From a virus (taxonomy: Duplodnaviria; Caudoviricetes): a stretch of 64,000 nt of DNA. The number at the start of each line of letters is the position of its first letter. Positions within the stretch are counted from its first letter, which is position 1. The stretch spans positions 11,097-75,096 of the IMG/VR virus record IMGVR_UViG_3300049982_000337, one strand, 5' to 3'. The position numbers were made by a program, and so were the translations under genes. Shown here in pieces: positions 9,364 to 60,800 of the stretch. The notes beneath the pieces are model-generated. The model saw only the letters and a program-made list of their open reading frames with translations, was not told the DNA's origin and did no database searches.

Positions 9364-9947
9364 GCGCCCCGGCCGCCACGAGCAACTCACCAGGCTCCAC
9401 TTCGCCAGCCCGCCTGAACGCCCATCGCGCCATGGCACAATCCGCCGGCTGGAACGATGAACGGATTGAGCATCTCAAGAAAGAGTGGGCAGCAGGTCGG
9501 TCTGCGAACCAGATCGCCGCGGATCTCAAGCTCACGCGCAATGCCGTGATCGGAAAGGTTCACCGCCTTGGCCTCAACAGGCGCAGCGGATCGCCGGAGC
9601 CTCGCCGGATGCACATGGCCGCGCCGCGCCCCAAGGTGGCGAAGGCGCCCCAGCCGAGACCGCAGCTCATGATCGCGAGCAATGGGTGTGTCGTCGAGAA
9701 GGCCGAGCCCAGACCGCCGCGTGTCCAGATCCCGGCTCGTGTCGAGGGACCGGGTTCCGCGACTCTGCTGACCGTCGGCGCCCACATGTGCAAGTGGCCG
9801 ATCGGCGATCCGATGGACAAGGAATTCACCCTCTGCGGCCGCGGCCGCGAGCGCGGGTCCTACTGCGCTTCCCATGCCGCCCTGGCCTATGCACCGGCGT
9901 CGAGCACACCCAAGGAGCTGATGCGCGGCCTGCGGAGGTACGTATGA
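9360..9947 (+). CDS. gcrA: GcrA cell-cycle regulator homologue
   Basis: GWNDERIEHLKKEWAAGRSANQIA...TRNAVIGKVHRLGL N-domain and LLTVGAHMCKWPIGDP...FTLCG...GSYCASHAALAY C-domain. Confidence 0.93.
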   Translation: MSAPAATSNSPGSTSPARLNAHRAMAQSAGWNDERIEHLKKEWAAGRSANQIAADLKLTRNAVIGKVHRLGLNRRSGSPEPRRMHMAAPRPKVAKAPQPRPQLMIASNGCVVEKAEPRPPRVQIPARVEGPGSATLLTVGAHMCKWPIGDPMDKEFTLCGRGRERGSYCASHAALAYAPASSTPKELMRGLRRYV

Positions 9948-11422
9948 GCGGCCGCGCCCAGGGCGGAGGTTGCGTCACCGCCCTCTCCGCCGAGAACATC
10001 GCTGCGGCCCTCGTCATCTCGGCCAAGGTATATGGCGACGCGACGTTAAAGGCGGTCGCCGCCAAGAGCGGGATCCTGAGACGATCCCTGCCACCGGCTT
10101 GCGTTGGCCTGCATCTGGCCACCGGCGCGCCGATCGCGCGGGTGGCCGCGCTGATCGGCCTCAGCCATCGCAACGTCATTACCGCTCGCACCAACGCGGA
10201 CGGCCGTTTCACGACGGCGGTTGAGCAGGTGATGGCCGCGCTCGGCGCAACAGAGACCGAAAAGCCGTCCAGACCGCGACCTTGCCCGCCCGTCGAAACC
10301 GTGGCGCCTGTTACGGCGCCTTCGCCGAAGCCGGTGACGCCGAAGGATCGACCGCAGATCGCGGCGCAGTTCGCCGACCTTCGCCGCGTCCAGGACGACC
10401 TGGTCATCAAGGCAATCTCGGTCGCTTCGACCGCCAGTGCAGATGGCTACGCCTACCTAACCCTTGGCGCTCTCGCGGTAGCCACGGACGTGCCCAAGGG
10501 CAGCATCCTCTTCGTGGTTCGGCGGCTGGTCGAGGCCGGCCGGCTTGAAGTCCGCAAGGTGGACACGGCCAAGGGCGAGGTCAGGCAGCCCAATGGTTAC
10601 CGCGTGGCCGACATGGGCCGTGCGGATCCGATTCAACAGCCTTCATCTCAGGTCGCCGCTTGTGCGCCCCCATCGTCTCCCCGGGCAGCGCCTGAGGAAC
10701 GGGCACCCGCGATCCTCGATGGCAAGGTCTCGTCGGTCGACCGCCTTCTCGCCGCGATGCGCGCCGTGGCGACGCCGGATGGCCGGGCCTTCGTGGTTCC
10801 ATTGGAGATCTGCGCGGTTGCCCAGGTCCTGTGGACGAGCTGGGACACCCTGAAAGGCAAGCTGATAGCTCGAGGCGACCTCAAGCTCATCCTTGCGGGG
10901 AAGGTCGATCAGCCCTGGACGTTCTGGGTCTCGACCGGCGAGCGGGGACGGGCGCTGGCGGCTGCCGAGCCAGCCGCGGCCCCTAAAGCTGCACCTCCGC
11001 CGCCGGCCCCGGCCGCGCCGGCGCCGGCCCGCACGGTGGCGACGCGACCGGTCCCGGCTGTTCGGCCCCCGGGCCCGAAGGCGGAGCCCTGGCTTGAGCA
11101 GCGATCGGTTGTGCCGGCCCGCGCACGTCAACACGAGCCGGAGACCCCGACGCTGCCGGTCCCGCCGCGTGCTGACGCCGCGCTTGGGCTGGACGAGTGG
11201 GACGATGGCAAGCCCGGGCCCAAGGCGCTGCGCCACCTGAAGGCTCACGCCTGCCGGTGGCCGATCGGAACGCCGAAGCCGGGCTATGCCGATGAGCAGC
11301 TCTTCTGCGCCGCTCGCGCGCCGCTCGACGAACCGTACTGCGCCCAGCACCAGCCGATGTCCCGCCAGCGCGGGACGTCGCTCACCAAGCCGAAGGCGGC
11401 GCCAACCCGGACCATGCAGTGA
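9944..11422 (+). CDS. Multi-HTH protein with a C-terminal GcrA-type Cys domain
   Basis: Start at ATG 9944 (ATGA overlap). Several winged-HTH-like segments; C-terminus LKAHACRWPIGTP...LFCAA...PYCAQH. Confidence 0.7.
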   Translation: MSGRAQGGGCVTALSAENIAAALVISAKVYGDATLKAVAAKSGILRRSLPPACVGLHLATGAPIARVAALIGLSHRNVITARTNADGRFTTAVEQVMAALGATETEKPSRPRPCPPVETVAPVTAPSPKPVTPKDRPQIAAQFADLRRVQDDLVIKAISVASTASADGYAYLTLGALAVATDVPKGSILFVVRRLVEAGRLEVRKVDTAKGEVRQPNGYRVADMGRADPIQQPSSQVAACAPPSSPRAAPEERAPAILDGKVSSVDRLLAAMRAVATPDGRAFVVPLEICAVAQVLWTSWDTLKGKLIARGDLKLILAGKVDQPWTFWVSTGERGRALAAAEPAAAPKAAPPPPAPAAPAPARTVATRPVPAVRPPGPKAEPWLEQRSVVPARARQHEPETPTLPVPPRADAALGLDEWDDGKPGPKALRHLKAHACRWPIGTPKPGYADEQLFCAARAPLDEPYCAQHQPMSRQRGTSLTKPKAAPTRTMQ

Positions 11423-11628
11423 GCGACGAGATCAACGATGAAGCCGCCGCGATCGTCGGTAAGGCCTGCTCCGAGGCGAGAAGCCCCCCCGCTATGGCGG
11501 CGGCTTTGGCACGGATCGCCGGCAATGCCTTCGCCCGCTTCACGAGCCATGACGACGCCTTCTTGCTGCACACCAAGCGGGCTCGGGAGCACCAGCTGCG
11601 CATGGGCCAGAAGAGGCACCTGCGATGA
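11419..11628 (+). CDS. Hypothetical protein
   Basis: Coupled ORF. Confidence 0.5.
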   Translation: MSDEINDEAAAIVGKACSEARSPPAMAAALARIAGNAFARFTSHDDAFLLHTKRAREHQLRMGQKRHLR

Positions 11629-11870
11629 AAGCCTGGGTCGTCCCAATCGAGGCCGTCAGGGCCAGCGCCACGCTGATGGGGGCCCGGGTTCTGGCCCGGC
11701 TCGCGGGGGAGGGCGCAACGCTCCACCCGAACGCCACCGTCCAGCTCCTGCCGACGCAGGGCTACATGGCCACCGTCACCTATGTCGCCCAGCCGCGTGC
11801 GGAGCGCCAGTTCGCCGCCACCATCCCGCTGGAATGGGCGCCGCGCGAGAACCAGGCGGCGACCGCATGA
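11625..11870 (+). CDS. Hypothetical protein
   Basis: Coupled ORF. Confidence 0.55.
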   Translation: MKAWVVPIEAVRASATLMGARVLARLAGEGATLHPNATVQLLPTQGYMATVTYVAQPRAERQFAATIPLEWAPRENQAATA

Positions 11871-14368
11871 CCGACACCTATCAACAGCTCTTGGAAGACA
11901 AGGCCTGCCCGGCGCCGTCGACTGGCTTCCATGTTGAGCTCGACGAGCTGCATCCCTGGCTGAAGCCGCATGTCCGCGCCATCGCGCAATGGGGGATCGC
12001 CGGCGGCAGCCGCGCCTTCTTCCTCGCCTACGGGCTCCACAAGACGTCGCTGCAGCTGGCGGTGACCAGCACGATCGTCGAGCGCAAGGGTGGCGCCGGG
12101 CTGATCGTGGCGCCTCTCGGGGTCCGCGACGAGTTCTTCGGCGACGCCGCGACGATGGGCATCGACTTGCCGTTCATCCGCTCGAACGCCGAGATTCGCG
12201 ACGGCCAGGTCAACCTCGCCAACTATGAGAGCGTCCGGGACGGCAAGATCGACCCGCGGCTCTTCACGGCGACGTCGCTGGATGAGGCCGAGGTCCTGAG
12301 GAGCTTCGGGTCGAAGACCTATCAGGAATTCCTCCCGGCCTTCGCCGAGGTGCCCCACAAGTTCGTCGCGACCGCCATGCCTTCGCCGAACCGCTACAAG
12401 GAGCTGATCCACTACGCAGCGCATCTGGGCGTCATGGACAGCGGCCAAGCCCTGACGCGCTTCTTCGGGCGCAATAGTGAGAAGGCCAACGACCTCACCC
12501 TCTACCCGCACAAGGAGGAGGAGTTCTGGCTCTGGGTCGCGTCCTGGGCAATCTTCCTGCAGAAGCCCTCCGACCTCGGCTTCAGCGACGAGGGCTATAT
12601 CCTGCCGCCTATGGAGGTGCGCTGGCACGAGGTGCCGGCTGACCTGCGCGACAACACCCCGGAGAGCAACGGCCAGCTTCGCCTGATCCGCGACGCCGCC
12701 GTGGGCGTCCAGGGCGCCGCGCGCGAGAAGCGGGACACCCTGACGACCCGCATCGCCAAGATGAAGGAGCTGCGCGAGGCCGAGCCGGAGAACCACTTCA
12801 TCCTCTGGCACGACCTCGAGGATGAGCGCCGGGCTATCGAACAGGCGATTCCGGCGGCCGTCAGCGTCTACGGCTCGCAGGACATCGAAGACCGGGAAAA
12901 GGTGGTCAAGGCCTTCAAGGCCGGCACGATCACCGACCTCGCCGCCAAGCCGGTGATGCTGGGCGCCGGCGGCAATCTCCAGCGGCACTGCCACCGGGCG
13001 ATCTTCGCCGGCATCGGCTTCAAGTTCCGGGACGTCGCCCAGGCCTGGCACCGCCTCCAGCGGTTCGGCCAGGAGCACCCGGTCGTCATCGACATGATCT
13101 ACGCCGAGACCGAGCAGGAGGTGCGCCGGTCCTTCGAGGAGAAGTGGGAGCGCGACCGCGTCATGCGCGAGCGCATGAGCGAGATCATCCGGACCTATGG
13201 GCTCGGCAAGATCTCGACGGCCGTGGCGATGCGGCGGTCCATCGGAGTCGAGCGCGAGGAGGCCAGCGGCGAGGGGTGGTCGGCGATCAGGAACGACTGC
13301 GTCGATGAGGCCCGGCGGATGGACGACGACAGCGTCGGCCTTATGGTCACCTCGATCCCATTCGGGACGCAGTACGAATACTGCGAGAGCTACAACGACT
13401 TCGGCCACAACGACGACAACGCCGGCTTCTTCCGCCAGATGGACCATCTGACCCCGGAGCTGCTGCGGATCCTGCAGCCGGGCCGGATTCTGGCCGTCCA
13501 CGTCAAGGACCGGATCATCTTCGGCGCCGTGAGCGGCCTGGGCTTCCCCACCGTGGAGCCCTTCCACGCCGACTGCATCGCCCACTACACCAAGCACGGC
13601 TTCGCCCTGATCGCGGTCCGACCCATCGAGACCGACGTAGTTCGGGAAAACAACCAGACCTACCGCCTCGGCTATTCGGAGATGCGGAAGGACGCGACGA
13701 AGATGGGGGCCGGCTCGCCGGAATATGTCCTCTTCTTCCGGAAGCCGCAGACCGACCAGAGCCGCGGCTATGCCGACATCCCGATCACCAAGGCGGTCGA
13801 GGAATACAGCCTGGCCCGCTGGCAGATCGACGCCTCGGCCTTCTGGCGCAGCAGCGGCGACCGCATGCTGACGACGCGGGAGCTGGCCGCCATGCCGCCC
13901 CAGGTGCTGGCCAGGACGTTCAAGGCCCACTCGGAGCGGACCGTCTACGACCACGACGCCCACGTCGAGATCGCCGAGGCCCTGGCCGACCGGAAAGCCT
14001 TGCCGAAGACCTTCTCGGCCGTGGCCCTCGGCTCGCCGTCCGGCCAGGTCTGGACCGACATCGTTCGGATGCGGACCCTCAACTCGGAACAGTCGCTCGG
14101 CGGCCGTGAGAAGCACGTCTGCCCGCTCCAGATCGACGTCGTCGACCGGATCATCCGGTTCTATTCGAACAAGGGCGACCTCGTCTTCGACCCCTTCGCC
14201 GGCCTCTTCACGGTGCCGGTCCGAGCCTTGATGCTCGGCCGCCGCGGCGGGGGTAGCGAGCTGCACGACGACTACTGGCGCGATGGCGTTCGCTACCTGC
14301 GGATCGCCGAGCTCGAGGCCAACGCTCCGACGCTTTTCGACTTCCTGGAAACGGGGGAAGCTGCGTGA
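11867..14368 (+). CDS. SF2/SNF2-like helicase - DNA methyltransferase (N4/N6 family) fusion
   Basis: Start at ATG 11867. GLHKT Walker A-like, SLDEAE, ATAMPSPN, helicase-C GAGGNLQ/HRLQRFGQ. MTase VTSIPF (motif IV variant) precedes VFDPFAG (motif I). Confidence 0.88.
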   Translation: MTDTYQQLLEDKACPAPSTGFHVELDELHPWLKPHVRAIAQWGIAGGSRAFFLAYGLHKTSLQLAVTSTIVERKGGAGLIVAPLGVRDEFFGDAATMGIDLPFIRSNAEIRDGQVNLANYESVRDGKIDPRLFTATSLDEAEVLRSFGSKTYQEFLPAFAEVPHKFVATAMPSPNRYKELIHYAAHLGVMDSGQALTRFFGRNSEKANDLTLYPHKEEEFWLWVASWAIFLQKPSDLGFSDEGYILPPMEVRWHEVPADLRDNTPESNGQLRLIRDAAVGVQGAAREKRDTLTTRIAKMKELREAEPENHFILWHDLEDERRAIEQAIPAAVSVYGSQDIEDREKVVKAFKAGTITDLAAKPVMLGAGGNLQRHCHRAIFAGIGFKFRDVAQAWHRLQRFGQEHPVVIDMIYAETEQEVRRSFEEKWERDRVMRERMSEIIRTYGLGKISTAVAMRRSIGVEREEASGEGWSAIRNDCVDEARRMDDDSVGLMVTSIPFGTQYEYCESYNDFGHNDDNAGFFRQMDHLTPELLRILQPGRILAVHVKDRIIFGAVSGLGFPTVEPFHADCIAHYTKHGFALIAVRPIETDVVRENNQTYRLGYSEMRKDATKMGAGSPEYVLFFRKPQTDQSRGYADIPITKAVEEYSLARWQIDASAFWRSSGDRMLTTRELAAMPPQVLARTFKAHSERTVYDHDAHVEIAEALADRKALPKTFSAVALGSPSGQVWTDIVRMRTLNSEQSLGGREKHVCPLQIDVVDRIIRFYSNKGDLVFDPFAGLFTVPVRALMLGRRGGGSELHDDYWRDGVRYLRIAELEANAPTLFDFLETGEAA

Positions 14369-28270: not shown

Positions 28271-29953
28271 ATGGCCACGGCAGCGGAGCGGCTTCACGAC
28301 CAGGCGGTCATCCACCGCATCGGCCTGAACCGATATTCGAACGCGCTCGTCCGCAAGATGATGGCGCTGCTCAACCGGATCGAGGTCAACGCGGTCCAGA
28401 AGCTCGCCGACGCCGGCGTCGAGGGCGCGGGGCCCAGACGGCTGAACCAGCTGCTCGACGCAATCCGCGAGATCCAAGCCCAGGGGTGGGCGCAGCTCAA
28501 GCCGGAGCTGATGACCAACCTCGACGGCCTGGCCGCCAACGAGATGGACTTCGCCATGAAGTCCGTCGCCTTCGCCGCGGCCGCCGTCGACGTCGAGCTT
28601 GGAGGCGGCGCCCCGGCGCTGGCCCAGGTGGTCGGCGCCGTCCGCGCCAGGCCGTTCCAGGGCCGGCTCCTTCGGGAATGGCTCAACGGTGAGGAGGAGG
28701 GGACCAAGAAGCGGGTCCGCGAGGTCATCCGCCAGGGCTTTGTTGAAGGCCAGACCACAGACCAGATCGTGCGCACCTTGCGCGGGACCAAGGCCAACCA
28801 GTTCAAGGACGGCGTGCTCGAACGCTCGCGCCGCGGCCTTGAGGCTATGGTGCACACTGCGGTCACCCACACCTCGACCGTCGCCCACCAGGCCGTCTTC
28901 GAGCAGCACGCCGATGTCGTCACAGGCGTGATCTGGACGTCGACGCTGGACGCCAGGACTACGCTGATCTGCATCTCCCGGTCGGAGAAGGTCTTTCCGA
29001 TCGATAAGGGTCCGCGGCCGCCGGCGCACATCCGGTGCAGGTCGACGATGCGACCGCAGGTCCGCGCGATCGAGGGCGTGGCCCCCATGAAGGTCCAGTC
29101 CTATCCGGAGTGGCTGGCGAGGCAGCCGGCCGCGGTGCAGGACGACATCCTGGGCTCGGCGCGCGGCGCGCTCTACCGATCCGGGGGCGTGAAGGTTGAA
29201 GGGTTTGTCGATCACGCCGGCAAGACGCTTACGCTCGACCAGCTGCGGAAGCGTGACGACGCTGCGTTCAGGCAGGCGGGGCTCGACCATCCGATTAAGC
29301 CCCCGCCAGGGACGCCAAAGGACGAGATCGTTCGGTTCCTCGCCGACAAGCCGGCACAACGGGCGCTACTGACCAGGTTGATGGGCAGCGGAGCCTCCGG
29401 GATCGAGCTTCATGAGATGGTGGTCGAGGGCGCGATAGAGCGAAATGCCTGGAAGGCCGAGGTCAACGATCTCCTGGCGATCCGCCATTACACCGGCCGC
29501 GCCTACAAGGCGATCAATCAGCGGATGCGCGAGGAAGGGGGGCTGCTCGAGGACCGCCAGTTCACTGCTCTGGCAGGGCGTGGCATCGAGACCCTGCCGC
29601 AGCACGAAGGGTCGACTTGGCGCGCGCCTGCCACGCGGGCCGACGTCGCAGACCGCATGTGGGAGCGCTCCATCGTCGGCGAAGACTTTGACATGGGCAA
29701 TCACCTGATCTCCACCTCGTCGTCGCGGGCCTTCGCGGTCGATTGGGGCAGTGCCGGGCGCTTGGTGCTCAAGATCCGGAACCCAAAGGGAGCCTCGGTC
29801 GACGAGGTCTCACTCAACCGCGGGGAGGGTGAAGTTCTCTTGCCCGCAGGAATGCGTTATCGTGTGGTGCGCAAGAGCGAAGAAAACCTGCCAGGGCAGT
29901 CTGGCGCGCTTCGGAATGTGCGCCTGGTGGAGCTGGAGATCATCGAGCCGTGA
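28271..29953 (+). CDS. MuF (SPP1 gp7-like) minor head protein with a C-terminal ADP-ribosyltransferase toxin domain
   Basis: MuF WTSTLDARTT..C...PPAH..CRS. ART HYTG..YKAIN..MR, GSTWR, ISTSSS, GEGEVLLP (R-S-E). Confidence 0.88.
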   Translation: MATAAERLHDQAVIHRIGLNRYSNALVRKMMALLNRIEVNAVQKLADAGVEGAGPRRLNQLLDAIREIQAQGWAQLKPELMTNLDGLAANEMDFAMKSVAFAAAAVDVELGGGAPALAQVVGAVRARPFQGRLLREWLNGEEEGTKKRVREVIRQGFVEGQTTDQIVRTLRGTKANQFKDGVLERSRRGLEAMVHTAVTHTSTVAHQAVFEQHADVVTGVIWTSTLDARTTLICISRSEKVFPIDKGPRPPAHIRCRSTMRPQVRAIEGVAPMKVQSYPEWLARQPAAVQDDILGSARGALYRSGGVKVEGFVDHAGKTLTLDQLRKRDDAAFRQAGLDHPIKPPPGTPKDEIVRFLADKPAQRALLTRLMGSGASGIELHEMVVEGAIERNAWKAEVNDLLAIRHYTGRAYKAINQRMREEGGLLEDRQFTALAGRGIETLPQHEGSTWRAPATRADVADRMWERSIVGEDFDMGNHLISTSSSRAFAVDWGSAGRLVLKIRNPKGASVDEVSLNRGEGEVLLPAGMRYRVVRKSEENLPGQSGALRNVRLVELEIIEP

Positions 29954-31837: not shown

Positions 31838-33007
31838 ATGGGCACGCTTACCCTTACGAACCTCATTGGCCCGATTTACGAGGCCTTCGACGTCGTCTCC
31901 CGCGAGCGCGTCGGGTTCATCCCCGCCGTTTCGCAGGACTTCAGCGCCGAACGCGCCGCTGTCGGCCAGCTGATCACCTCGCCTGTCGTCGGCCAGATGC
32001 CGGCCGAAGACCTCACCCCCGCCGCTGCTTCGGGCGACACCCCGAACCAGACCGTCGGCACTGTGCAGATGACCATCTCCAAGGCTCGCTCGGTGCCGTT
32101 CGGGATCACCGGCGAAGAGAACAAGGGTCTGAACAGCGGGGGCAACACGGCCACGATCAACCGTGACCGGATCGCCCAGGCACTGCGGACCCTGACCAAC
32201 GAGGTCGAGGTCGACATCTACGAGGAGATGCACAAGACCGTCAGCCGCGGTTACGGCACCGCCGGCACCACGCCGTTCGGCACCAAGGACGACTTCTCTG
32301 ACTTTGCCTCCTCGCTCGAAATCCTCGACGAGAACGGGGCGCCCGAGACCGACCGCCACATGGTCCTTGGCTCGGCCGGCATCCGCAACCTGCGCGGCAA
32401 GCAGTCGGGCCTTTTCAAAGCCAATGAAGCAGGCACCGACGAACTGCTGCGTCGCGGCGTGCTCTCCGACATCGAAGGCTTCGGCATTCACCAGTCGGCG
32501 GCCATCCGCAACGCGGTTACGGCCGGCACGGGCGCCTCGGCCACCACGAACACCACCGGCTATGCGGTCGGCTCCACCGTCATCACCCTGGCCTCGGCTG
32601 GGACTGGCACGATCCTCGCCGGCGACCTGGTCGCTTTCGCGGGCGACACCCGCAAGTACATGGTGGTGTCCGGTGATGCGGATGTTTCCGGCGGCGGGAC
32701 CTTCACCATCGCTGAACCCGGCCTTCTGAAGGCGATCCCGAACTCTGCAACGGCGATCACCGTCACCGCCGCCGCCGTCCGGAACGTCTTCCTCCACCGC
32801 TCGGCCCTCCAGCTCGCCACCCGCGCGCCGGCCATGCCGGACGAGGGGGATGCTGCTGACGACGTCATGGTCATCAGGGATCCGGTCTCGAAGATCGCCT
32901 TCGAGTTCTGCGTCTACAAGCAGAAGCGCCAGGTCCGTTACGAGGTGAACCTGGCCTGGGGCAAGAAGCTGATCGCCCCGCGCCACGCCGGTCTCCTGCT
33001 CGGCTAA
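31838..33007 (+). CDS. Major capsid protein (P22 gp5-like coat)
   Basis: LTNLIGPIYEAFDVVSRERVGFIPAV...RYEVNLAWGKKLI.P.H; position after the scaffold. Confidence 0.9.
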   Translation: MGTLTLTNLIGPIYEAFDVVSRERVGFIPAVSQDFSAERAAVGQLITSPVVGQMPAEDLTPAAASGDTPNQTVGTVQMTISKARSVPFGITGEENKGLNSGGNTATINRDRIAQALRTLTNEVEVDIYEEMHKTVSRGYGTAGTTPFGTKDDFSDFASSLEILDENGAPETDRHMVLGSAGIRNLRGKQSGLFKANEAGTDELLRRGVLSDIEGFGIHQSAAIRNAVTAGTGASATTNTTGYAVGSTVITLASAGTGTILAGDLVAFAGDTRKYMVVSGDADVSGGGTFTIAEPGLLKAIPNSATAITVTAAAVRNVFLHRSALQLATRAPAMPDEGDAADDVMVIRDPVSKIAFEFCVYKQKRQVRYEVNLAWGKKLIAPRHAGLLLG

Positions 33008-33110
33008 GCCGCCACGCCCACACGACAGATCAGGGTGGGGCTTCGGCTCCACCCTGTTTTCTCACAGGCGCCCGGCTTCGGACGTCTCTGCGAAAACAGG
33101 GAGCCATCCT

Positions 33111-33770
33111 ATGCGCACCATCAACGTGAAGCCCTGGGCCGATGGCCAAGGCGAGTTCGTGATCATCGACGTCGCCAGCTTCAACCCCAAGCTCCACGAG
33201 CGGCTCGACGGCGACGACACGCCGCTTCCGGGCCCCTTCGACGACCACAGCCGCGACCAGCTGATTGACTTGGCCGTCGTCAGCTTCCGCGAGGACATGG
33301 CAGGCCTTTCCGACGACGACCTGCGCCGCGGTCTTGAAGCCCTGGACCGTCGTCGCCAGCGCGAGGCGGAGGGGCCGTTCAATGGCGCCGACCCGGACCT
33401 GTTCGACCACGACGGCGACGGCAAGCCCGGCGGCAGCCTCGGCAACGCTCCCGGCGCCCGCGGCGGCGAGGAACTGGATCGGCCTGATGGCGCGCCGGTT
33501 GGCGAGCAGGTCAGCGGAGCAACCACGGACGGGGTGATCTTGGACCCTGTCGCCGCAAAGGGCCTCACCAAGCAGGAGATCATCGCCGACCTGGAGGGCA
33601 TGGGTATCGAGTTCGACCCCAGGGCCGCCAAGGCCGACCTGCTGGCCCTGCGCAATGAAGCCCGCGCCGCGCGCGACGCCCAAGCCACCATCGACGCCGC
33701 CGCGGCAGTCGCCACCCAAGCTGAGATCGACCTGGGCGACGACACCCAGGCGTCCGGCGCCGGCGAGTAG
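33111..33770 (+). CDS. Head-associated hypothetical protein with a HeH/LEM-like C-terminal motif
   Basis: DHDGDGKPGGS motif; LTKQEIIADLEGMGIEFDPRAAKADLLAL. Confidence 0.6.
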   Translation: MRTINVKPWADGQGEFVIIDVASFNPKLHERLDGDDTPLPGPFDDHSRDQLIDLAVVSFREDMAGLSDDDLRRGLEALDRRRQREAEGPFNGADPDLFDHDGDGKPGGSLGNAPGARGGEELDRPDGAPVGEQVSGATTDGVILDPVAAKGLTKQEIIADLEGMGIEFDPRAAKADLLALRNEARAARDAQATIDAAAAVATQAEIDLGDDTQASGAGE

Positions 33771-33799
33771 AACTTCAGCAGTCAGAAAGGCTTGAGCCC

Positions 33800-34114
33800 A
33801 TGACCGTCCACGTCCTCTTCATGTCCACCCGCGGGATCGGGTCTGTCGATTCCCCCGGCCTTGGAACCGTCCGCCTACGTGAGGTGGTCACCGTGCCTGG
33901 CGTAACCGACGGCCAGGCCGAGGAAGGCGAGATCGTCATGGTCGTCAACGAAGAGGCGACCTCCATCCTCGTGGCGCACGGCCTGGATCCTGATGCCTCG
34001 ACCCTGGAGCGCACCGAAGCAAGCAGCGCAGGGTTCCCCGTTCCGGCCGCTCGCTACAGCATGCCCATCGTCACCGGCCGCGGCGACAAGGTCAGCATCA
34101 AGGCGATGGCGTAG
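33800..34114 (+). CDS. Hypothetical virion-region protein
   Basis: Beta-rich ORF in the late operon. Confidence 0.6.
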   Translation: MTVHVLFMSTRGIGSVDSPGLGTVRLREVVTVPGVTDGQAEEGEIVMVVNEEATSILVAHGLDPDASTLERTEASSAGFPVPAARYSMPIVTGRGDKVSIKAMA

Positions 34115-34117
34115 GCC

Positions 34118-35413
34118 ATGCTGGAGTTCCTGACCCCGCTGCTGGCCCAGCAGCAGATCGCCATCGGAATGATCGGCGCCACCTTCGTCGGCGCGCTGGT
34201 CTATTCGCTGAAGGCACTGCCGTCCAACCTCTGGGCGGTGCTGCGCGAGCAGTTCAGCGTCACCCTCGCGGTCGAGGGCCAGGACCTCATCTATGACCAC
34301 CTGAACCTGTGGTTCTCCCGTCACCAGGCGGTCAAGCGCGTCCGTCGGATGATGCTGCAGCAGGAGTTCGACTACGACCGCAGCGACTGGCGCTGGAAGT
34401 TCACCCTGGGCAGGGGGTGGCACCTGATCTGGACCCACGGCCGTCCGATGCTCGTCCACCGCGACGTCAGCGAGGGCGGCGAGATCGCCAAGCTGCTGGG
34501 GAAGGGGACCAATCAGCGGATGTCGGTGATCACCATCGGCCGCGACCAGGCGCTGCTCCGCCGGATCGTGGAGGAGGCCGAGGAGATCTACAACTCCGAC
34601 GGCCACGTCCGCATCTACTACTGGAACCAGAGCGGCTATGACCTGGCCGACCGCCGGCCGCCGCGGTCCATGGACACCGTCTTCCTGCCGGACGCCCAGA
34701 AGCGCCGCCTCATCGCCGATGTCCGTGCCTTCACCGAGGCCAAGGCCGCCTATCGCGAGCGCGGCACGCCCTATCGTCGCGGCTACCTGTTCGAGGGTCC
34801 GCCCGGCACCGGCAAGACCAGCCTGATCTTCGCCCTGGCCGGCCTGCTCGGCCGCGCCGTGTTCGTGATCAACCTCAGCAACGTCCATGGGGACAACGCC
34901 TTGCTGGCCGCCTTCAACGCGGTCGGCAATGACGGCGTGGTGGTGATCGAGGACATCGACACCGCCGAGATCACCAAGGACCGTGAGGTGGTCGCTGTTC
35001 AGCAGGCCGAACAGCAGTCCAATGGTGGTGGCCCGCCTATGCTCATGGGGGCTCAGTCAGGCCGCGTCACCCTGAGCGGTCTGCTCAACGCCATCGACGG
35101 CGTCGCCGCTCGCGAAGGCCGGATCCTCTTCGTCACCTCGAACCACGCCAGCGAGCTCGACCCTGCGCTGCTACGCAGTGGCCGCATCGACCGCCGCGAG
35201 ACCATCGACCGTCTGGACGCCGATACGGCCTGGGCGATGTTCCAGGCGTTCCGGCCCGACGGCGCGCACGCCGATTTTGAGCGCCTTGTCCTGCCCCGGC
35301 TCCCCATCGCCGCAGCCGACCTGCAGAACCTGTTGCAGGCCGCCGACGACGGCGCAGAGGTCATAACCTTGCACCCTGCCGGCGAAACCCGGCGGGCCGC
35401 TCTGGGAGCCTGA
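34118..35413 (+). CDS. BCS1-like AAA+ ATPase with an N-terminal TM and BCS1_N-like domain
   Basis: GTPYRRGYLFEGPPGTGKTS, VVVIEDID, VTLSGLLNAIDGVAAREGRILFVTSNH..ELDPALLRSGRID. Confidence 0.9.
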   Translation: MLEFLTPLLAQQQIAIGMIGATFVGALVYSLKALPSNLWAVLREQFSVTLAVEGQDLIYDHLNLWFSRHQAVKRVRRMMLQQEFDYDRSDWRWKFTLGRGWHLIWTHGRPMLVHRDVSEGGEIAKLLGKGTNQRMSVITIGRDQALLRRIVEEAEEIYNSDGHVRIYYWNQSGYDLADRRPPRSMDTVFLPDAQKRRLIADVRAFTEAKAAYRERGTPYRRGYLFEGPPGTGKTSLIFALAGLLGRAVFVINLSNVHGDNALLAAFNAVGNDGVVVIEDIDTAEITKDREVVAVQQAEQQSNGGGPPMLMGAQSGRVTLSGLLNAIDGVAAREGRILFVTSNHASELDPALLRSGRIDRRETIDRLDADTAWAMFQAFRPDGAHADFERLVLPRLPIAAADLQNLLQAADDGAEVITLHPAGETRRAALGA

Positions 35414-35416
35414 GAC

Positions 35417-35941
35417 ATGGCGCTGATCGTCGAGGACGGCACCGGCCGGCCGGACTCTGAGGCCTACCGCTCTGTCGCCGATCACAGGACCTATTGCGCG
35501 GCACGCGGCATCGATCTGGGCAGCCTGAGCGATACAGACCTCGAACAGGACGCCCGAGTGGCGACCGACTTCATGGTGCAGAGTTTCCGCTATCGTTGGG
35601 CCGGTGAGCGCGCCACGAATACCCAGGCTCTCGACTTCCCCCGTCACCTGATCCCGATCAAGGACGGGCCCGGATCCTTCGCCTCGACCGTGACCTACTA
35701 CCCGCACGACCGGGTGCCGACTGAGGTCGGCAACGCCCAGTCCGAGCTGATGAACCGGGCTCGCGCTGGCGCGCTGGCGCCTGACCAGACCAGGGCGATC
35801 ATCACCGAGACGACCGGCCCGATCACCACGACCTACGACAAGAACTCGCCCGAGGCGCCGCGATACCGCGCCGTCCACATGATGCTCCGGCCTTTCCTGA
35901 AGAACGGCGGGGCAGGGACAGTCGGCGTGGTGCGCTGTTGA
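35417..35941 (+). CDS. Head-tail adaptor (DnaT-like ssDNA-binding family)
   Basis: MALIVEDGTG..DS.AY.SVA, QALDFPR, VP.EV..AQ.EL. Confidence 0.85.
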   Translation: MALIVEDGTGRPDSEAYRSVADHRTYCAARGIDLGSLSDTDLEQDARVATDFMVQSFRYRWAGERATNTQALDFPRHLIPIKDGPGSFASTVTYYPHDRVPTEVGNAQSELMNRARAGALAPDQTRAIITETTGPITTTYDKNSPEAPRYRAVHMMLRPFLKNGGAGTVGVVRC

Positions 35942-52262: not shown

Positions 52263-53369
52263 ATGAAACTGCTCAAGATGGCGGCCGCCTGGTCGCTCGC
52301 GCTCTCCTGCCTGGTCGGATCGCCGGCCGCGGCTCAAACCGGCGCCCCGCTGACACCTTCCAGCACCGCCCGGGAACTTGCCGGCGCCGTGATCGCCGCT
52401 CCGGATCTCTTGGTGGCCAAGGCCTATGCGGGCCAGGTACTCGGCCCGCAGGTCAATTCGGCGTCCGGCCTCGTCGCCACGCTGAAGACGGCGCAGGGCG
52501 GGGACCGCGTCCGGCTTGCGCCGGGCCCCTATGGCGGGGTGTCGCTGGCCGGCTTCACCTTCTCGCCGCCCGTGACCTTGGAGGCCGCAGGGGCGGTGTT
52601 CACGGCGCTGAAGCTGGATCGGGTGGACGGCCTGGTCATGGAGGGTGGAACGGTCGCTCTCGACCCGGCCAGCAGCGCATCGTCCGCCTCGGTCACCGAC
52701 AGCGCCAACGTCGCCATCCGCGGGCTCGAGGTCTACGGCAAGGCGGTCTCCGGCCTGACGATCACGCGAGGGACGAAGGTCGAGGTCAGCGGCGGGTACT
52801 TCCATGACCTGCGCAACGCCGTGCTGATCACTGCCGGCGAGAACGTGCTGGTGACCAAGAACAAGGTCCGCCGGATGCTGTCGGACGGGATGGTCGGCTC
52901 AGGCGGCCCACGCAACCTGACCATTTCCTACAACGACATGTCGGACTTCAGCCCCCAGGCCGGCGCGCACCCCGACGGTGTCCAGTTGTTCACCCGCAAC
53001 GCCACCCGCTCAGCCGAGGATATCAAGATCATCGGCAACCGGATCACGCGCGGGTCGGGCGGTATTCCCCAGGGCATCTTCGTCACCACCCAGGCCGGGT
53101 GGGTGCTGCCCTATAGGCGCGTCGAGATCAGCGGCAACTATATCGAGGGCGCCATGCACTACGGCATCGGGCTTCAGAACGCCGACGTGGTCGAAATCAA
53201 GGGCAACATCGTCCAGCCGATCGAGGGTCAGAAGTCGCGCATCCACCTGATCAACCTGAGCAACGCCGTGGTGTCGGGCAACAGCGCCTGGATGATCACT
53301 CAGCAGGGTCCGGTCGTCACGGTCACCGGCACGAGGGCGCTCGGCTTCCTGAAGCCGGTGGCGCCCTAA
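52263..53369 (+). CDS. Secreted right-handed parallel beta-helix (pectin-lyase-like) protein
   Basis: Signal peptide ending AAA-Q; AHPDGVQLF; repeated NV.I.GN ladders. Confidence 0.8.
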   Translation: MKLLKMAAAWSLALSCLVGSPAAAQTGAPLTPSSTARELAGAVIAAPDLLVAKAYAGQVLGPQVNSASGLVATLKTAQGGDRVRLAPGPYGGVSLAGFTFSPPVTLEAAGAVFTALKLDRVDGLVMEGGTVALDPASSASSASVTDSANVAIRGLEVYGKAVSGLTITRGTKVEVSGGYFHDLRNAVLITAGENVLVTKNKVRRMLSDGMVGSGGPRNLTISYNDMSDFSPQAGAHPDGVQLFTRNATRSAEDIKIIGNRITRGSGGIPQGIFVTTQAGWVLPYRRVEISGNYIEGAMHYGIGLQNADVVEIKGNIVQPIEGQKSRIHLINLSNAVVSGNSAWMITQQGPVVTVTGTRALGFLKPVAP

Positions 53370-54517
53370 GCGAGCCTCACGCGTTGCCCGCGAAGGGTCT
53401 TGATTGCCCTAGTGATCGGTCGTTCGATGAGGAAGTGCGCCGCAAGCCCGCCGCCGACGCCGACGGCGCTTAGCATGATGAAGGCTACGGGGGGCGTGAG
53501 TATCGAGGTCATCCCGAGCCGGGCCAGGGTCATCGCCGCCACCGGCAGGAACAGCATGTGGGTCAGGTAGATCGCGAACGACGCCTCACCCATGGTCACC
53601 AGCCAGCGGGGGGCCTTCAGAAGGCCGGATCGCTCCGCTTCAACCGCGCCCATCAGCATCATGGCGCTGGCCATGCCGAAAGTCAGGGCCGCCGATTGAG
53701 TGTGTGAGACACCCATGCGGCTGGTGACTAGGCCGTTGACGACGAAGAGCAGCGCCCCGGATGCCAGCAGGAGGCGGGGCGCTGGTATCGTCCAGCGGGA
53801 GAGCGCAGCTGAACACCCCACGCCGATGGCGAAGAGGGCGTTGACGTGCGACGTCACGTAGGCGGGCCAAGGCGGCTCGAATGCCGTCATCGGCAGGATC
53901 AGGCAAGCCGCGGTCCAGGCCACGAACGCGGGAATACCGACCCGCGGCAGGCCAATCACTAGGGCGCAGAAGCCGTAGAACAACACCTCGTGCCACAGCG
54001 TCCACGACACGAAAACGATGGCGTCGAAGGGGTTTTTGCCGACCAGCAAGGCCGATTGCAGAACAACGAGGGGGTTTCGGAAATCCTCTCCGCCACTGCC
54101 CTTGACGTAAAACATGGCCAGGGTGACCAGCAGCACGGCCCATAGGAACGGATAGATCCGGTCGAAACGCTTCGTGGCAAACGCCCGGACGCGATCTGCC
54201 TGACCGATATCGCGCCGATGGATCATCAACATGATGAAGCCCGATAGGACGAAGAAGAACTCCACCCCGGCGTGACCGAACTTGAAGACCCCGCCAAACA
54301 CGCCATCGGTCCAGTACTTCGCGCTGGCGAAGTAATATTTGTCGACGTGATAGAGGACCACAAGCAGCGCCGCGATCCCTCGACCAGCATCGACGTTGGC
54401 TTGGCGGCTGACCTGAGGGGCGACCGAGGCGTTCGGCGCTGGGGTGGCCGGGCTCGCGCCCAACACCCCGCCGCTAGTCCCATCCAAGGGCGCAGTGTTC
54501 ATCGGATGCTTTAGCAT
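53366..54517 (-). CDS. Acyltransferase-3 family (OafA-like) membrane O-acyltransferase
   Basis: DAGRGIAALLVVLYH, GVEFFFVLSGF, KRFDRIYP, WTLWHEVLFY, GEASFAIYLTH, IERP. Confidence 0.92.
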   Translation of the reverse strand: MLKHPMNTAPLDGTSGGVLGASPATPAPNASVAPQVSRQANVDAGRGIAALLVVLYHVDKYYFASAKYWTDGVFGGVFKFGHAGVEFFFVLSGFIMLMIHRRDIGQADRVRAFATKRFDRIYPFLWAVLLVTLAMFYVKGSGGEDFRNPLVVLQSALLVGKNPFDAIVFVSWTLWHEVLFYGFCALVIGLPRVGIPAFVAWTAACLILPMTAFEPPWPAYVTSHVNALFAIGVGCSAALSRWTIPAPRLLLASGALLFVVNGLVTSRMGVSHTQSAALTFGMASAMMLMGAVEAERSGLLKAPRWLVTMGEASFAIYLTHMLFLPVAAMTLARLGMTSILTPPVAFIMLSAVGVGGGLAAHFLIERPITRAIKTLRGQRVRLA

Positions 54518-54739: not shown

Positions 54740-55012
54740 ATGACCGTTGATCCGGAGGCCGAACGCATGCCCCGCCCGCGCAAGATCGACACAGCTCTGC
54801 TTGGCATCGTGCTGACGCTCCTTCTTCAGGGCGTCACCGCGATCTGGTGGGCCGCCACCATGAACAATCGGATGACGCAGCTAGAGAAGGATTTGGCCCC
54901 GGCCCGGACGGTCTTCGAAACGGTGGCTCGCCTGGACGAGCGGTCGAAGGCGATGGAGAGCTCGACGGCGCGGATCGAGCGGAAGCTGGATTCCCTGGAG
55001 CAGCGGCGATGA
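54740..55012 (+). CDS. Putative holin-like membrane protein
   Basis: One TM plus a coiled coil, directly before the endolysin. Confidence 0.5.
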   Translation: MTVDPEAERMPRPRKIDTALLGIVLTLLLQGVTAIWWAATMNNRMTQLEKDLAPARTVFETVARLDERSKAMESSTARIERKLDSLEQRR

Positions 55013-55053
55013 GGTGGCTCCCCGCGGTCGCGCCCCGGGCGTCCGGTGGCGCC

Positions 55054-55608
55054 ATGACCGACGTCTTTGACCGGCTGATCGAGCCCCTGCTGAAGCGCGA
55101 GGGTGGCTACGTCAACGACCCCAACGATCGGGGCGGCGAAACCAACTGGGGCGTGACCATCGGCGTCGCTCGCGAGAATGGCTATGGCGGCTCCATGCGC
55201 GCCATGACGCGCGACCAGGCCAAAGCCATCTACCGGACCAAGTACTGGGCCAAGCCGGGCCTCTACCTCATCGCACCGCTGTCCGAAGCCGTCGCCGACG
55301 AGCTGTTCGACACCGGCGTCAACATGGGCACGGGCACGGCGGCGATCTTCTTCCAGCGCGCGCTGAACGCCCTGAACCGCCAGGCCAAGGACTATCCCGA
55401 CATCATCGTCGACGGCGGTATCGGACCGGCCACCGCGGCGGCCTTCAAGGCGTACTTAAAGCGCAACGGTAAGACGGCCGAGCCGGTGATGCTCAAGACC
55501 CTGAACAGCCTTCAGGGCGCCCGCTACGTCGAACTGTCCGAAGGCCGCGGGCAGAACGAGACCTTCACCAACGGCTGGATGGCCCAACGCGTCGGGCTGG
55601 CTGCATGA
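55054..55608 (+). CDS. Endolysin, glycoside hydrolase family 108 with a peptidoglycan-binding domain
   Basis: EGGYVNDPNDRGGETNWGVT, FDTGVNMG, DGGIGPAT, F..GW...R. Confidence 0.93.
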   Translation: MTDVFDRLIEPLLKREGGYVNDPNDRGGETNWGVTIGVARENGYGGSMRAMTRDQAKAIYRTKYWAKPGLYLIAPLSEAVADELFDTGVNMGTGTAAIFFQRALNALNRQAKDYPDIIVDGGIGPATAAAFKAYLKRNGKTAEPVMLKTLNSLQGARYVELSEGRGQNETFTNGWMAQRVGLAA

Positions 55609-55627
55609 CCCACATAAGGAGAATGTT

Positions 55628-55840
55628 ATGACCCGCAAAGCTTTGGCGGCGCTCGCGCTCGCCTGCGTCGCCCTGTCCGGCTGCGCGTCGATGCCCGGCG
55701 GCTCCGGCATCCCGAGCCAGATCCTCGACAACCTGGAGAACTGCAAGCGCAGCTATCGCGGCGGGACCGGCATCGGCGCCGTCTTCACGTTCGACATCGA
55801 GTGCGAGCCGCACGTCTCCCCGCCCGCCGCGGCGCCGTGA
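55628..55840 (+). CDS. Small lipoprotein (lysis cassette)
   Basis: Lipobox ALSGC. Confidence 0.7.
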   Translation: MTRKALAALALACVALSGCASMPGGSGIPSQILDNLENCKRSYRGGTGIGAVFTFDIECEPHVSPPAAAP

Positions 55841-56283
55841 TGGGCGCTGCGTTCCTCTCCAAGCTCCGCATCGAGGATACCGAGCGGGAGCGACACGGGA
55901 CTGAGCGCGCCGAGTGGGTCCTTCTGGAGCCGTTTGGATATCGCTCGTCCAAGGGCTGGGAGGTCTGGGTTCCAGCCGGCTATGTCACCGACTTTTCGAG
56001 CATCCCGGCGCGGCTTCAGGACGTCGAGTCCTCGACGGGCCGCGCCCGGCGTGCCGCGGTCATCCACGACTGGCTCTACTCAAGCCGGATCGTACCGCGC
56101 GAGGCGGCCGACAAGACGTTCCTCGACGCCATGGAGTGCTGTGGCGTGCCCTACCTTAAGCGATCGCTCATGTTCCGGGCGGTGCGGACGTTCGGGGGTT
56201 CGGGCTACGGCCGGCCGGAAGAGTACGAGGCGGCCAAGGCGCTGCTCGAACGCTCAGACCTTCCCTTGGCTTGGGACTGGTGA
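55840..56283 (+). CDS. DUF1353-domain protein
   Basis: VPAGYVTDFSSIP, AAVIHDWLY, AD..FLDAM...GV, AVR.FG. Confidence 0.88.
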   Translation: MGAAFLSKLRIEDTERERHGTERAEWVLLEPFGYRSSKGWEVWVPAGYVTDFSSIPARLQDVESSTGRARRAAVIHDWLYSSRIVPREAADKTFLDAMECCGVPYLKRSLMFRAVRTFGGSGYGRPEEYEAAKALLERSDLPLAWDW

Positions 56284-56383
56284 TGTTCGACCTCATCCTG
56301 GTCGGGATGGCGGCCTCGATCCTCCTCCCGCTGGCGGCCTTGGCGCTCTGGTGGCGTCTTAGGCTGACCGACTTGAACTGCTT

Positions 56384-56418
56384 AAGGCCCGCTCCCTTTC
56401 TGGGGGGCGGGCCTTTTT
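56384..56418 (+). terminator. Late-operon terminator
   Basis: AAGGCCCGCTCCC/GGGGGGCGGGCCTT hairpin followed by a T-run. Confidence 0.75.
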
Positions 56419-56450
56419 CTTATGCGCCTCGAAGATCATGGATCACCCGC

Positions 56451-56771
56451 TCACTCATCGTCGCGCGCCTTGCCATGCACGCCGGGCTTGTACGGCCCTT
56501 TGGACTTGCCGCCTGCCGGACGCTTGAACTCCCGCTTTGGCTTCTCGGCGCTGCGGGCGGTCGGCGCTGGACGGCGCGGTTCTTCTGGCGTCGGCGGAAG
56601 GACGTCGGGAATGAGCTTCGGTCGGACGCCTGCTCGGGCCTTGGCGCGCCAGAACTCGTGGCTGGCCTCGGTCAAGCACTTCCAGGGCATTGACGGACGC
56701 GGTGGGCCGAAGGGGTAGAGCTCTTGTTGGAGGGCGCGGGCGATGCTTTCGATCTCTTCATCGACTGTCAT
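56451..56771 (-). CDS. Hypothetical protein (paralogue of 60903-61127)
   Basis: Start at ATG 56771: MTVDEEIESIARALQ...MPWKCLTEASHEFWRAKAR. Confidence 0.6.
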   Translation of the reverse strand: MTVDEEIESIARALQQELYPFGPPRPSMPWKCLTEASHEFWRAKARAGVRPKLIPDVLPPTPEEPRRPAPTARSAEKPKREFKRPAGGKSKGPYKPGVHGKARDDE

Positions 56772-58026: not shown

Positions 58027-59112
58027 TCAAGAATCGAGATCGAAGTCGAGCTCTTGTTGTGAACCAAGCGGAATCGCCTCCGGGAAGGCCTTATAGAAAT
58101 TCTTCTCAAATTGCTGGATGTTTCGTGAAGCGTTCCCGATCCCGATCACTTGCCAAAGGTGAGCTCGGATTGCCGGAAGCCCAACCTCCTTTGAGAGGAA
58201 CTGGAAAAGTTTGTATTTCCGGCCGCCATTCGAATAGACGACAGGGTTTTGTTCGTCCAGCATTTCGAGGATCATGCCGTGGCTATTCGCGAGCGGATGA
58301 TAGATGAACTTACGAGTAAACTTTGCGAAAAACCTGGGGTGTTTCGTAGATGAAGCGTCGAATCGCTTATACCCGTAGATAGAGTAGAGCATATCTGCGA
58401 ACTTGTTGGGGAACTCTTGTTCCCACTGTGACCATTCGCTTTTGATGAACTGCTGGAATTGCTTGCGATACTCATCTTTAGCACGCTCGCCAAATCCCAC
58501 GGCTTCGTCGATGAGTGCAATGATCCCCAATTTGGCTGCGGATCGTATAATAATCTCGGCTTGGACTGCTAGGAACTCTTGCGATGTGCTTAGCGCGTTC
58601 TTCTTCTTTGCTTCAATGATCGCGATGCATACATCAATGAGCAGGGTGCCTTCATAGCCATCAATGACTTGACCTACGGCCGCCGAATCCGCCCCAGGGC
58701 GACGGAAATTTAGTGGATTCGCGATCTTGTGCCGAAGCTCATCAGTCAGCGCATCGTCGATCCCCTTGCGGGTCATCGTTCGCAGGAAGGCATTGCCGCC
58801 GGCGGACTTCAAATTGAGGGCGCGAGCCATTGCCTTCTTCGAGATCATCCGGCGATTGTCCTTGAGCCGGTAAACCTCAACTTCGACGTCGCCTATCTGC
58901 AGAACGCCTTGGTGGGTTGCGGAGGGTAGGACGTCGGGATCTGCGATGCGCTCCCACCTCGCTTTCGCAGCGCGAACAGCAATCTCGCGTCGCTCCTCGG
59001 AGGTGAGTTTCATGGCGCGCGCCGCGCCGCCAAGAGATTGAGGGTTTTGTGCCAACGGAGGTTGCTCCTTGCTTGCTGCAGGGAGATTGTCAGATGCTTG
59101 CAGCCCTAGCAA
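58027..59112 (-). CDS. P63C-domain protein
   Basis: GGAARAMKLTSEERREIAVRAAKARW; C-terminal EFP..F...LY..YG...F..KFIY.PLA...K.FQFLS..VGL..IRAHLWQVI. Start may be TTG 59055. AT-rich. Confidence 0.85.
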   Translation of the reverse strand: MLGLQASDNLPAASKEQPPLAQNPQSLGGAARAMKLTSEERREIAVRAAKARWERIADPDVLPSATHQGVLQIGDVEVEVYRLKDNRRMISKKAMARALNLKSAGGNAFLRTMTRKGIDDALTDELRHKIANPLNFRRPGADSAAVGQVIDGYEGTLLIDVCIAIIEAKKKNALSTSQEFLAVQAEIIIRSAAKLGIIALIDEAVGFGERAKDEYRKQFQQFIKSEWSQWEQEFPNKFADMLYSIYGYKRFDASSTKHPRFFAKFTRKFIYHPLANSHGMILEMLDEQNPVVYSNGGRKYKLFQFLSKEVGLPAIRAHLWQVIGIGNASRNIQQFEKNFYKAFPEAIPLGSQQELDFDLDS

Positions 59113-60137: not shown

Positions 60138-60800
60138 TTACGCGTAGGGGCGCTGCGTCGGGGCCGATCGGCGTCCCCGAAGAGCTGAGCCGGCGAGGCC
60201 GAAGCCGAAGATCATCATAGCCCAGGTGGCGGGCTCCGGGATCGCGGTAGCGTCGCCAAGGGTGACGAGCAGCGAAGCCGGCTTGGACTGGTCGAACCAG
60301 TCGAAGGCCAAGTAGAGGTTGGCGATTGAATTATTGCCGAATGGATGAGCTCGGATCAAACAATCTCCAGCCGTCTCAGCTGTACAGTGTCGTGTGAAAT
60401 CGTGCGGAACTACGAGGCTTGCATAGGCTAGGCCGGGCCTTACTATTCTGAGGCAGGCATTGCTGGTGGTGCAATTGACGTAAATATCCTGTTCGTTGAT
60501 CTGGATGTCTTTGTAATAGCCGTTTCCGACCCCCATCCCTTCCTGGAAATACGCGAACTGCTCCACATAGAAGCCTTGCACGGACCCATATTGTAGGTCG
60601 AGATTGGAATACTCAATCTTGAGGGTTATCCGCTCCCCGGCGTCAGGGAGATGAAAGCTGACCGAGTCCGAATCCGTAAATCCGCTTTCGTGATAGTAGA
60701 GGTCTGTCATTTCCAAGACCTGGCCGGCGGCGGCTGGCGTTGCCAAAAGCCCAAGCAAAATCGGCCAGGCGCTGAGTGAGCGCGCGATTTGTCCGAGCAT
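60138..60800 (-). CDS. PEPxxWA-CTERM sorting-domain surface protein
   Basis: Signal peptide; C-terminal IPEPATWAMMIFGFGLAGSALRGRR. AT-rich core. Confidence 0.92.
   Translation of the reverse strand: MLGQIARSLSAWPILLGLLATPAAAGQVLEMTDLYYHESGFTDSDSVSFHLPDAGERITLKIEYSNLDLQYGSVQGFYVEQFAYFQEGMGVGNGYYKDIQINEQDIYVNCTTSNACLRIVRPGLAYASLVVPHDFTRHCTAETAGDCLIRAHPFGNNSIANLYLAFDWFDQSKPASLLVTLGDATAIPEPATWAMMIFGFGLAGSALRGRRSAPTQRPYA

Follow-up and report, generated by a model that had tools for sequence, protein, structure and literature searches.

A Bcs1-family AAA+ ATPase of a temperate phage, probably carried as accessory cargo between the capsid and adaptor genes

The analysis of a 64,000-nucleotide stretch of viral DNA (hereafter the window), taken from an IMG/VR provirus record of 75 kb, identified a gene on the plus strand (34118..35413, an open ORF) whose 431-aa product, P0001, is almost certainly a genuine Bcs1-family ATPase. 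The evidence assembled below suggests that this gene is probably accessory cargo and not a morphogenetic factor, and that its product would serve as an inner-membrane machine acting on a folded client with a benefit in the lytic cycle. The window gene (referred to as BCS1) adds to a family of phage genes that the literature had already recorded; what is new from the window is that BCS1 also travels in small temperate phages, hopping between early and late operons, and that one capsid lineage very probably does without it.

The preliminary description of this DNA, made from the sequence alone, had proposed an N-terminal transmembrane (TM) segment, a BCS1_N-like middle region and an AAA domain with three quoted motifs, and this architecture was borne out by Pfam, hydropathy and the motif positions. 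The predicted TM anchor covered residues 13-31 (34154..34210, +), the BCS1_N middle domain (PF08740) residues 25-188 (34190..34681, +) and the AAA module (PF00004) residues 224-364 (34787..35209, +), while the motifs GTPYRRGYLFEGPPGTGK, TLSGLLNAIDG and LDPALLRSGRID corresponded to residues 216-233, 318-328 and 347-358, respectively. The BCS1_N domain scored 63.3 bits against a gathering cutoff of 28.1 (E = 3.7e-17), with the match spanning positions 2-182 of the 182-position profile, and the AAA domain scored 58.5 bits (E = 1.2e-15). The catalytic residues, namely Walker A (GPPGTGK, 227-233), Walker B (IEDID, 277-281), sensor-1 (N342) and the arginines R353 and R356, were all invariant in an alignment of 35 sequences (A1). 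Among the 35 homologues, G98, G100 and G141 of the middle domain were also invariant, W91, H102 and R115 were conserved in at least 90%, and the hydrophobic N-terminal stretch was retained. In the window protein, residues 13-31 were moderately hydrophobic (Kyte-Doolittle mean of 1.69 over 19 residues) and were flanked by an acidic N-side (E3) and a basic C-side (K32/R43), giving a predicted N-out/C-in bias. The segment lay inside a long modelled helix (residues 2-46) of the AlphaFold2 structure, which was obtained from 35 homologues with a pLDDT of 88 and a pTM of 0.81.

The best Foldseek matches of this model were Bcs1 chains throughout, the top one being 8tp1_A (E = 1e-33, TM 0.72, 29% identity over 407 columns). 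Consistently, the top sequence matches among solved structures were mouse and yeast Bcs1 (phmmer; E = 1.7e-44 for mouse 6uko, residues 26-385), whereas Cdc48/p97 (1e-19) and YjoB (5e-14) were far behind. The full-length match to Bcs1 by Pfam, phmmer and Foldseek thus upheld the earlier assignment to this family, as opposed to a generic host AAA protein. Mitochondrial Bcs1/BCS1L (PDB 6uko, 8tp1, 6sh3, 9gs2) has the same collinear arrangement of TM segment, middle domain and single AAA module, and has the middle-domain GxGxH, TLSGLLNAxDG and LDPALxRPGRxD motifs in common with the window protein; no match of the latter was recorded to PF25426, a Pfam family found on eukaryotic Bcs1 homologues. 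YjoB of Bacillus subtilis (PDB 7w42/7w46), a soluble Bcs1-like AAA+ protein which we take to be devoid of a membrane anchor, has a related AAA module and N-terminal domain, but is far more distant (Foldseek E = 2e-17, TM 0.53, 17% identity), and its sequence match was confined to residues 195-282 of the window protein. The closest described family was phrog_7485, which was matched at full length (E = 1.9e-83, residues 3-406 against profile positions 10-398 of 430). Its phage orthologues, such as gp235 of Caulobacter phage CcrColossus and the proteins of Brevundimonas jumbo phages, display the same three-part architecture, and the Caulobacter and Brevundimonas phage proteins were 36-41% identical to the window protein over approximately 90% of the length. 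The phrog_7485 relatives reside mostly in jumbo phages, whereas the window copy is located in the late head/neck operon of a temperate siphovirus-type prophage.

BCS1 was separated from both of its neighbours by 3-nt gaps, with g104 ending at 34114 and the adaptor gene starting at 35417, in agreement with the spacing described earlier. The genes for TerS, TerL, the portal, a MuF-like minor head protein, the scaffold, the major capsid protein, g219 and g104 preceded it, in this order, and were followed downstream of BCS1 by those for the adaptor Ad1, the head closure protein Hc1, Neck1, the tail terminator, the tube, the chaperone and the tape measure. The major capsid gene (31838..33007, +; phrog_283, 1.7e-95) and the head-tail adaptor Ad1 gene (35417..35941, +; phrog_477, 1.8e-41) formed the left and right borders of the interval that we refer to as the cargo slot. 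The GC content of BCS1 (approximately 67%) was equal to that of its flanks. The only strong terminator-like hairpin in the scanned region (30.5-37.5 kb) followed the capsid gene and lay upstream of g219-g104-BCS1 (33031..33056, +; an 11-bp stem with 8 GC pairs, then TTTTCTC). No sigma-70-like promoter was detected in the same region, in a scan that does not cover alphaproteobacterial promoters; given this coverage, BCS1 may have its own expression in the lysogen. BCS1 is transcriptionally embedded in the late head/neck genes and, in view of the 3-nt gaps to its two neighbours and the failure to detect a promoter for it, would be read through together with them.

Two genes occupied the space between the capsid gene and BCS1. 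The first one, g219 (33111..33770, +), a conserved gene, gave weak PHROG matches of residues 147-189 to Arc-like-repressor families, which were read as a C-terminal HeH-like motif; its homologues followed the capsid gene in the BCS1-bearing loci L002 and L003 and in 13 of 80 loci with related capsids. The second one, g104 (33800..34114, +; ORF), encodes a small beta-rich phage protein with no Pfam or PHROG family, whose relatives fell into viral clusters of approximately 100-aa proteins with 118, 71 and 53 members (Atlas). The product of g104 had been put forward as a candidate client of the ATPase, and a g104 homologue is located beside BCS1 in L003 (46% identity). We rejected it as a dedicated partner or client of BCS1, as it belongs to a broad viral family, is absent from the BCS1-bearing L002 and is present in L185, which is devoid of BCS1.

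The relatives of the window phage were collected by means of a capsid alignment (A2), which yielded 80 phage loci with capsids 58-80% identical to that of the window. No BCS1 match was present within 10 kb in any of the 80 loci. Moreover, a BCS1 profile search, which recovered five of five known carriers as a positive control, did not find a homologue anywhere in the 27 long records with related capsids, 18 of which were at least 90% complete. The capsid-to-adaptor interval in these relatives ranged from about 1.4 to about 9.8 kb, and the long intervals held unrelated large genes, such as those for GDSL esterase-domain and FAD-oxidoreductase proteins; in L185 the order was capsid-g219-g104-adaptor, without BCS1. 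The interval is a hypervariable cargo slot in the lineage of the window phage. As the window capsid type assembles without BCS1, given that none of the 27 related-capsid records encodes it, BCS1 is very probably dispensable cargo for this capsid type. The gene had been regarded as a resident late gene, and the part of this reading that stood is its wiring into the late head/neck operon; as all 27 long records with this capsid lack it, it is not resident, and the synteny survey instead revealed the sporadic insertion in relatives that the preliminary description had named as evidence against its reading.

The slot spans 33008-35416 in the window; in the relatives (L173-L249), it often contained a gene for a 120-160-aa protein, followed by one for a protein of 500-800 aa with a GDSL esterase or an FAD-oxidoreductase/Golvesin_C domain. 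The larger proteins may be capsid-displayed enzymes.

The placement of BCS1 was then compared among its close orthologues, a set of 13 contexts (the window counted) in which the BCS1 proteins were 49-75% identical. Five of the 13 were located in head-gene clusters, at three different slots and in two types of head module, MuF/SPP1-like and HK97-protease type. The capsid-adaptor slot was used in the window and in L003. In L002, which belongs to the same head-gene lineage as the window and encodes a 75% identical protein, BCS1 lay directly after the portal gene, between portal and MuF. In L082 and L169, it was found in an HK97-type module between the portal and S78 prohead protease genes, directly upstream of the latter and separated from the portal by one to three small genes. 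The remaining eight contexts (L004, L081, L083-L087 and L168) were outside the head genes, mostly in a rightward early operon with methylase, SNF2, ParB, NusG-like or primase genes, or beside an integrase. Maximum-likelihood analysis placed the early-operon copies at the base of the tree and the head-slot copies as derived, with at least two relocations. One head-gene lineage hosts BCS1 in either the early or the head position, the head genes of L086 being approximately 60% identical to those of L082, yet its BCS1 being located in the early operon. BCS1 was therefore not considered a resident morphogenetic gene, because it is lacking from the 27 same-capsid records, occupies a hypervariable slot and is early in most of its close orthologues.

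These placements bear directly on the proposal that membrane-anchored BCS1 initiates or supports the assembly of proheads near the membrane, or delivers folded proteins into the head. BCS1 orthologues were previously reported in each of the three major jumbo-phage groups, and a role in membrane-proximal head assembly, together with the transfer of folded proteins into the head, was proposed for them (Iyer et al. 2021, PMC7824862); the earlier statement that no role in phage morphogenesis had been described is outdated in this respect. The head-cluster placement of five of the 13 copies, including three between the portal and the next head gene (L002, L082 and L169), might indicate a genuine connection with head assembly and not chance, and the portal-to-protease position was kept in L082 and L169 although their BCS1 proteins are only 64% identical. 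Three independent head-module placements and the portal-adjacent position in three loci are the reasons for which this reading keeps some weight. A further point in its favour is the MuF protein packaged in the head of the window phage, which carries an ADP-ribosyltransferase domain at its C-terminus. On the other hand, BCS1 was encoded by none of the 27 phages of the same capsid, portal and scaffold lineage, eight of the 13 close orthologues lie outside head modules, mostly in early operons, and it is the early-operon copies that are basal. Three head-slot insertions in about seven events are not above chance if about one-fifth of the junctions are head junctions, which is an estimate. In three annotated cultured lytic phages (one jumbo phage and two with genomes of 79 and 104 kb), BCS1 lay outside the structural module, amid unannotated and mostly small genes. 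The search for longer, fused forms with P0001 as the query returned only eukaryotic, mostly fungal, paralogues, and that with the S78 protease of L082 gave a single unrelated match, so no protease fusion was found in the BCS1 clade. The clear dispensability of BCS1 in one capsid lineage argues against a general function in head assembly; such a role cannot be general, and we regard head assembly as unlikely to explain the gene.

The MuF-like minor head protein mentioned above (560 aa; 28271-29953, +) carries the ADP-ribosyltransferase domain (PF03496) at residues 480-538, with 28.1 bits against a cutoff of 23.4. The MuF orthologue of L003 bears the same domain, and the window protein presumably resembles the MuF-type polymorphic toxins of temperate phages.

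All-against-all clustering of the surroundings of BCS1 in 69 viral loci, taking six genes per side, did not reveal any conserved neighbour, the neighbour families being common only to small groups of related phages. Likewise, a comparison of 11 close loci showed the small genes beside BCS1 to be unrelated, except in near-identical lineages. A 976-aa early protein of the window (11438-14368, +) has a C-terminal N6/N4 DNA methylase domain and is 50% identical to the methylase of L081, whose gene is located two genes after BCS1. Among 120 BCS1 homologues (P0004-P0122), 65 ended in Ala-Ala-COOH (RIAA, EVAA, GVAA and similar) and 87 in Ala, against a background of 22 of 301 genes of the same high-GC phage loci. 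This tail resembles an ssrA-type ClpXP degron. The window protein ends in AALGA, with residues 414-431 disordered in the model, and none of the five head-slot copies has an -AA end.

The family is widespread. BCS1 homologues were detected by tblastn in 181 of 50,697 cultured phage records (best identity 40.6%), mostly of jumbo phages infecting Pseudomonas, Erwinia, Serratia, Klebsiella, Brevundimonas, Ralstonia and Caulobacter, and an exhaustive phmmer search gave 2023 clusters (50% identity) at E = 1e-30 or better, eukaryotic Bcs1 counted in. The BCS1 homologue in the complete 63-kb phage record of L011 (G030:C1:26908-28095) is reported with one in-frame TGA inside the match. In species-representative genomes, full-length relatives were limited to about a dozen sequences (29-33% identity) from Planctomycetota and Rhodobacteraceae, the remaining matches covering the AAA module only, in Firmicutes proteins presumed to be FtsH-type AAA proteins. 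The two Rhodobacteraceae chromosomal copies (L093 and L095; Paracoccus and Sulfitobacter) were not located in prophages. One of them adjoins TnsA-like and Mu-transposase (Tn7-like) genes and a KAP NTPase gene, and the other adjoins genes for RtcR, a Ro60/TROVE protein and RtcB.

A quick tree was rooted with the Firmicutes AAA proteins (presumed FtsH), with long fungal paralogues and giant-virus copies as the eukaryotic sample. In this tree, the eukaryotic Bcs1-like sequences nested within the prokaryote and phage diversity, where they adjoined the copies from Planctomycetota and Rhodobacteraceae, with the Rhodobacteraceae clade as their nearest prokaryotic neighbour; the window clade was separate and grouped with Caulobacter jumbo phages. 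As its branches are long, its eukaryotic sample contains no canonical Bcs1 and its support is by SH-aLRT only, the rooted tree is taken as a lead, according to which mitochondrial Bcs1 may have been recruited from a mobile prokaryotic or phage gene.

In mitochondria, Bcs1 is an AAA heptamer that translocates the Rieske protein in its folded state, whereas the window copy is phage-encoded and would use the bacterial inner membrane. By analogy, we propose the following course of events for the accessory cargo. BCS1 would have landed in the hypervariable capsid-adaptor slot in the lineage of the window prophage. A single N-terminal helix would anchor the protein in the cytoplasmic membrane, with the middle domain (the basket) and the ATPase on the cytoplasmic side, and the subunits would form a ring, which is a heptamer in Bcs1. 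Upon ATP hydrolysis, the ring might grip a folded client at the membrane and then push it across, insert it or extract it. The candidate client is a phage or a host protein, and the candidate actions are the insertion or export of a phage protein and the extraction of a host membrane protein. The benefit would be expected in the lytic cycle, because strictly lytic jumbo phages carry the same family. Similarly, a membrane function with no need for precise timing is favoured, because the family does well in lytic phages and functions in both early and late operons.

A Bcs1-like action on a folded client follows naturally from the full-length homology, and the preliminary description had likewise suggested a folded-protein translocase or membrane remodeller; the general idea is plausible, although we hold it tentatively for the window protein and the specific clients named there (a lysis enzyme or the Rieske protein) were not supported. 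A stronger version, in which phage Bcs1 proteins would be Sec/Tat-independent, ATP-driven translocases of folded proteins across or into the inner membrane, appears unlikely; if true, it would represent a route not known in bacteria. Eukaryotes are usually credited with the invention of Bcs1, as a substitute for Tat that serves one client only. Even so, full-length homologues are common among phages, as the 181 cultured genomes attest. No experimental work on any phage Bcs1 homologue was found in the literature, and a BCS1-bearing temperate phage would offer a simpler system for knockout and trap experiments than a jumbo phage.

The sporadic presence of BCS1 in a hypervariable cargo slot is also typical of genes that benefit the lysogen, and BCS1 might be expressed by the prophage for phage exclusion (defence, abortive infection or superinfection exclusion) or for a change of the host envelope. 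The mobile or conflict-type contexts of the Rhodobacteraceae chromosomal homologues (Tn7-like with KAP NTPase; RtcR-Ro60-RtcB) would suit such a function, as would the presence in the same prophage of a minus-strand acyltransferase_3 gene, a candidate conversion gene. However, no defence family was matched, since the PADLOC profiles of defence ATPases (IetA, TRIP13, MkoA) gave only partial matches in the P-loop region, of at most 78 residues and with E = 2e-6 or weaker. Neighbour annotation did not reveal a protease or effector partner gene beside the window BCS1, and no effector neighbour was seen in the 69 viral and the close loci. In addition, neither a promoter nor a terminator of its own was found, the 3-nt coupling ties BCS1 to the late genes, and strictly lytic jumbo phages carry the family in abundance. 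A lysogen-benefit function was therefore judged improbable. The acyltransferase_3 gene, which encodes a membrane protein (53366-54517, -), comes directly after a beta-helix tail-spike-like gene (52263-53369, +), and is likely a lysogenic conversion gene acting by surface polysaccharide acylation.

With the two specific clients suggested previously, BCS1 would either export a lysis enzyme of the phage or interfere with Rieske/bc1 assembly in the host. The sole analogy for this is mitochondrial Bcs1 with its folded Rieske client, and the GH108 endolysin of the window seems to be devoid of a signal sequence if started at an internal Met. However, the prophage has an ordinary-looking lysis cassette (54740-56693), in which a holin-like gene for a 90-aa one-TM protein (54740-55012) precedes and overlaps the ORF of the GH108 and PG_binding_3 endolysin (54847-55608), followed by a DUF1353 gene, and this makes the need for lysis-protein export by BCS1 unlikely. 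BCS1 lies 19 kb upstream of the cassette and was never found beside lysis genes in the relatives examined. As regards host respiration, no respiratory gene was linked to BCS1 in any locus examined, and the Rieske protein is exported by Tat in bacteria (PMC13673990). Both clients are regarded as very improbable.

Several further features of the window were recorded. The N-terminal extension of 70 residues in the longest endolysin ORF is implausible, and the real start is probably an internal Met. A 645-aa early protein (9485-11422, +) ends in a GcrA cell-cycle-regulator domain, which indicates an alphaproteobacterial host. The GC content drops to 57-62% between 58000 and 63000, a region that encodes a P63C-domain protein (58027-59112, -), a PEP-CTERM protein (60138-60800, -) and a large serine recombinase (61428-62933, +), and that is probably the prophage end with the integration module.
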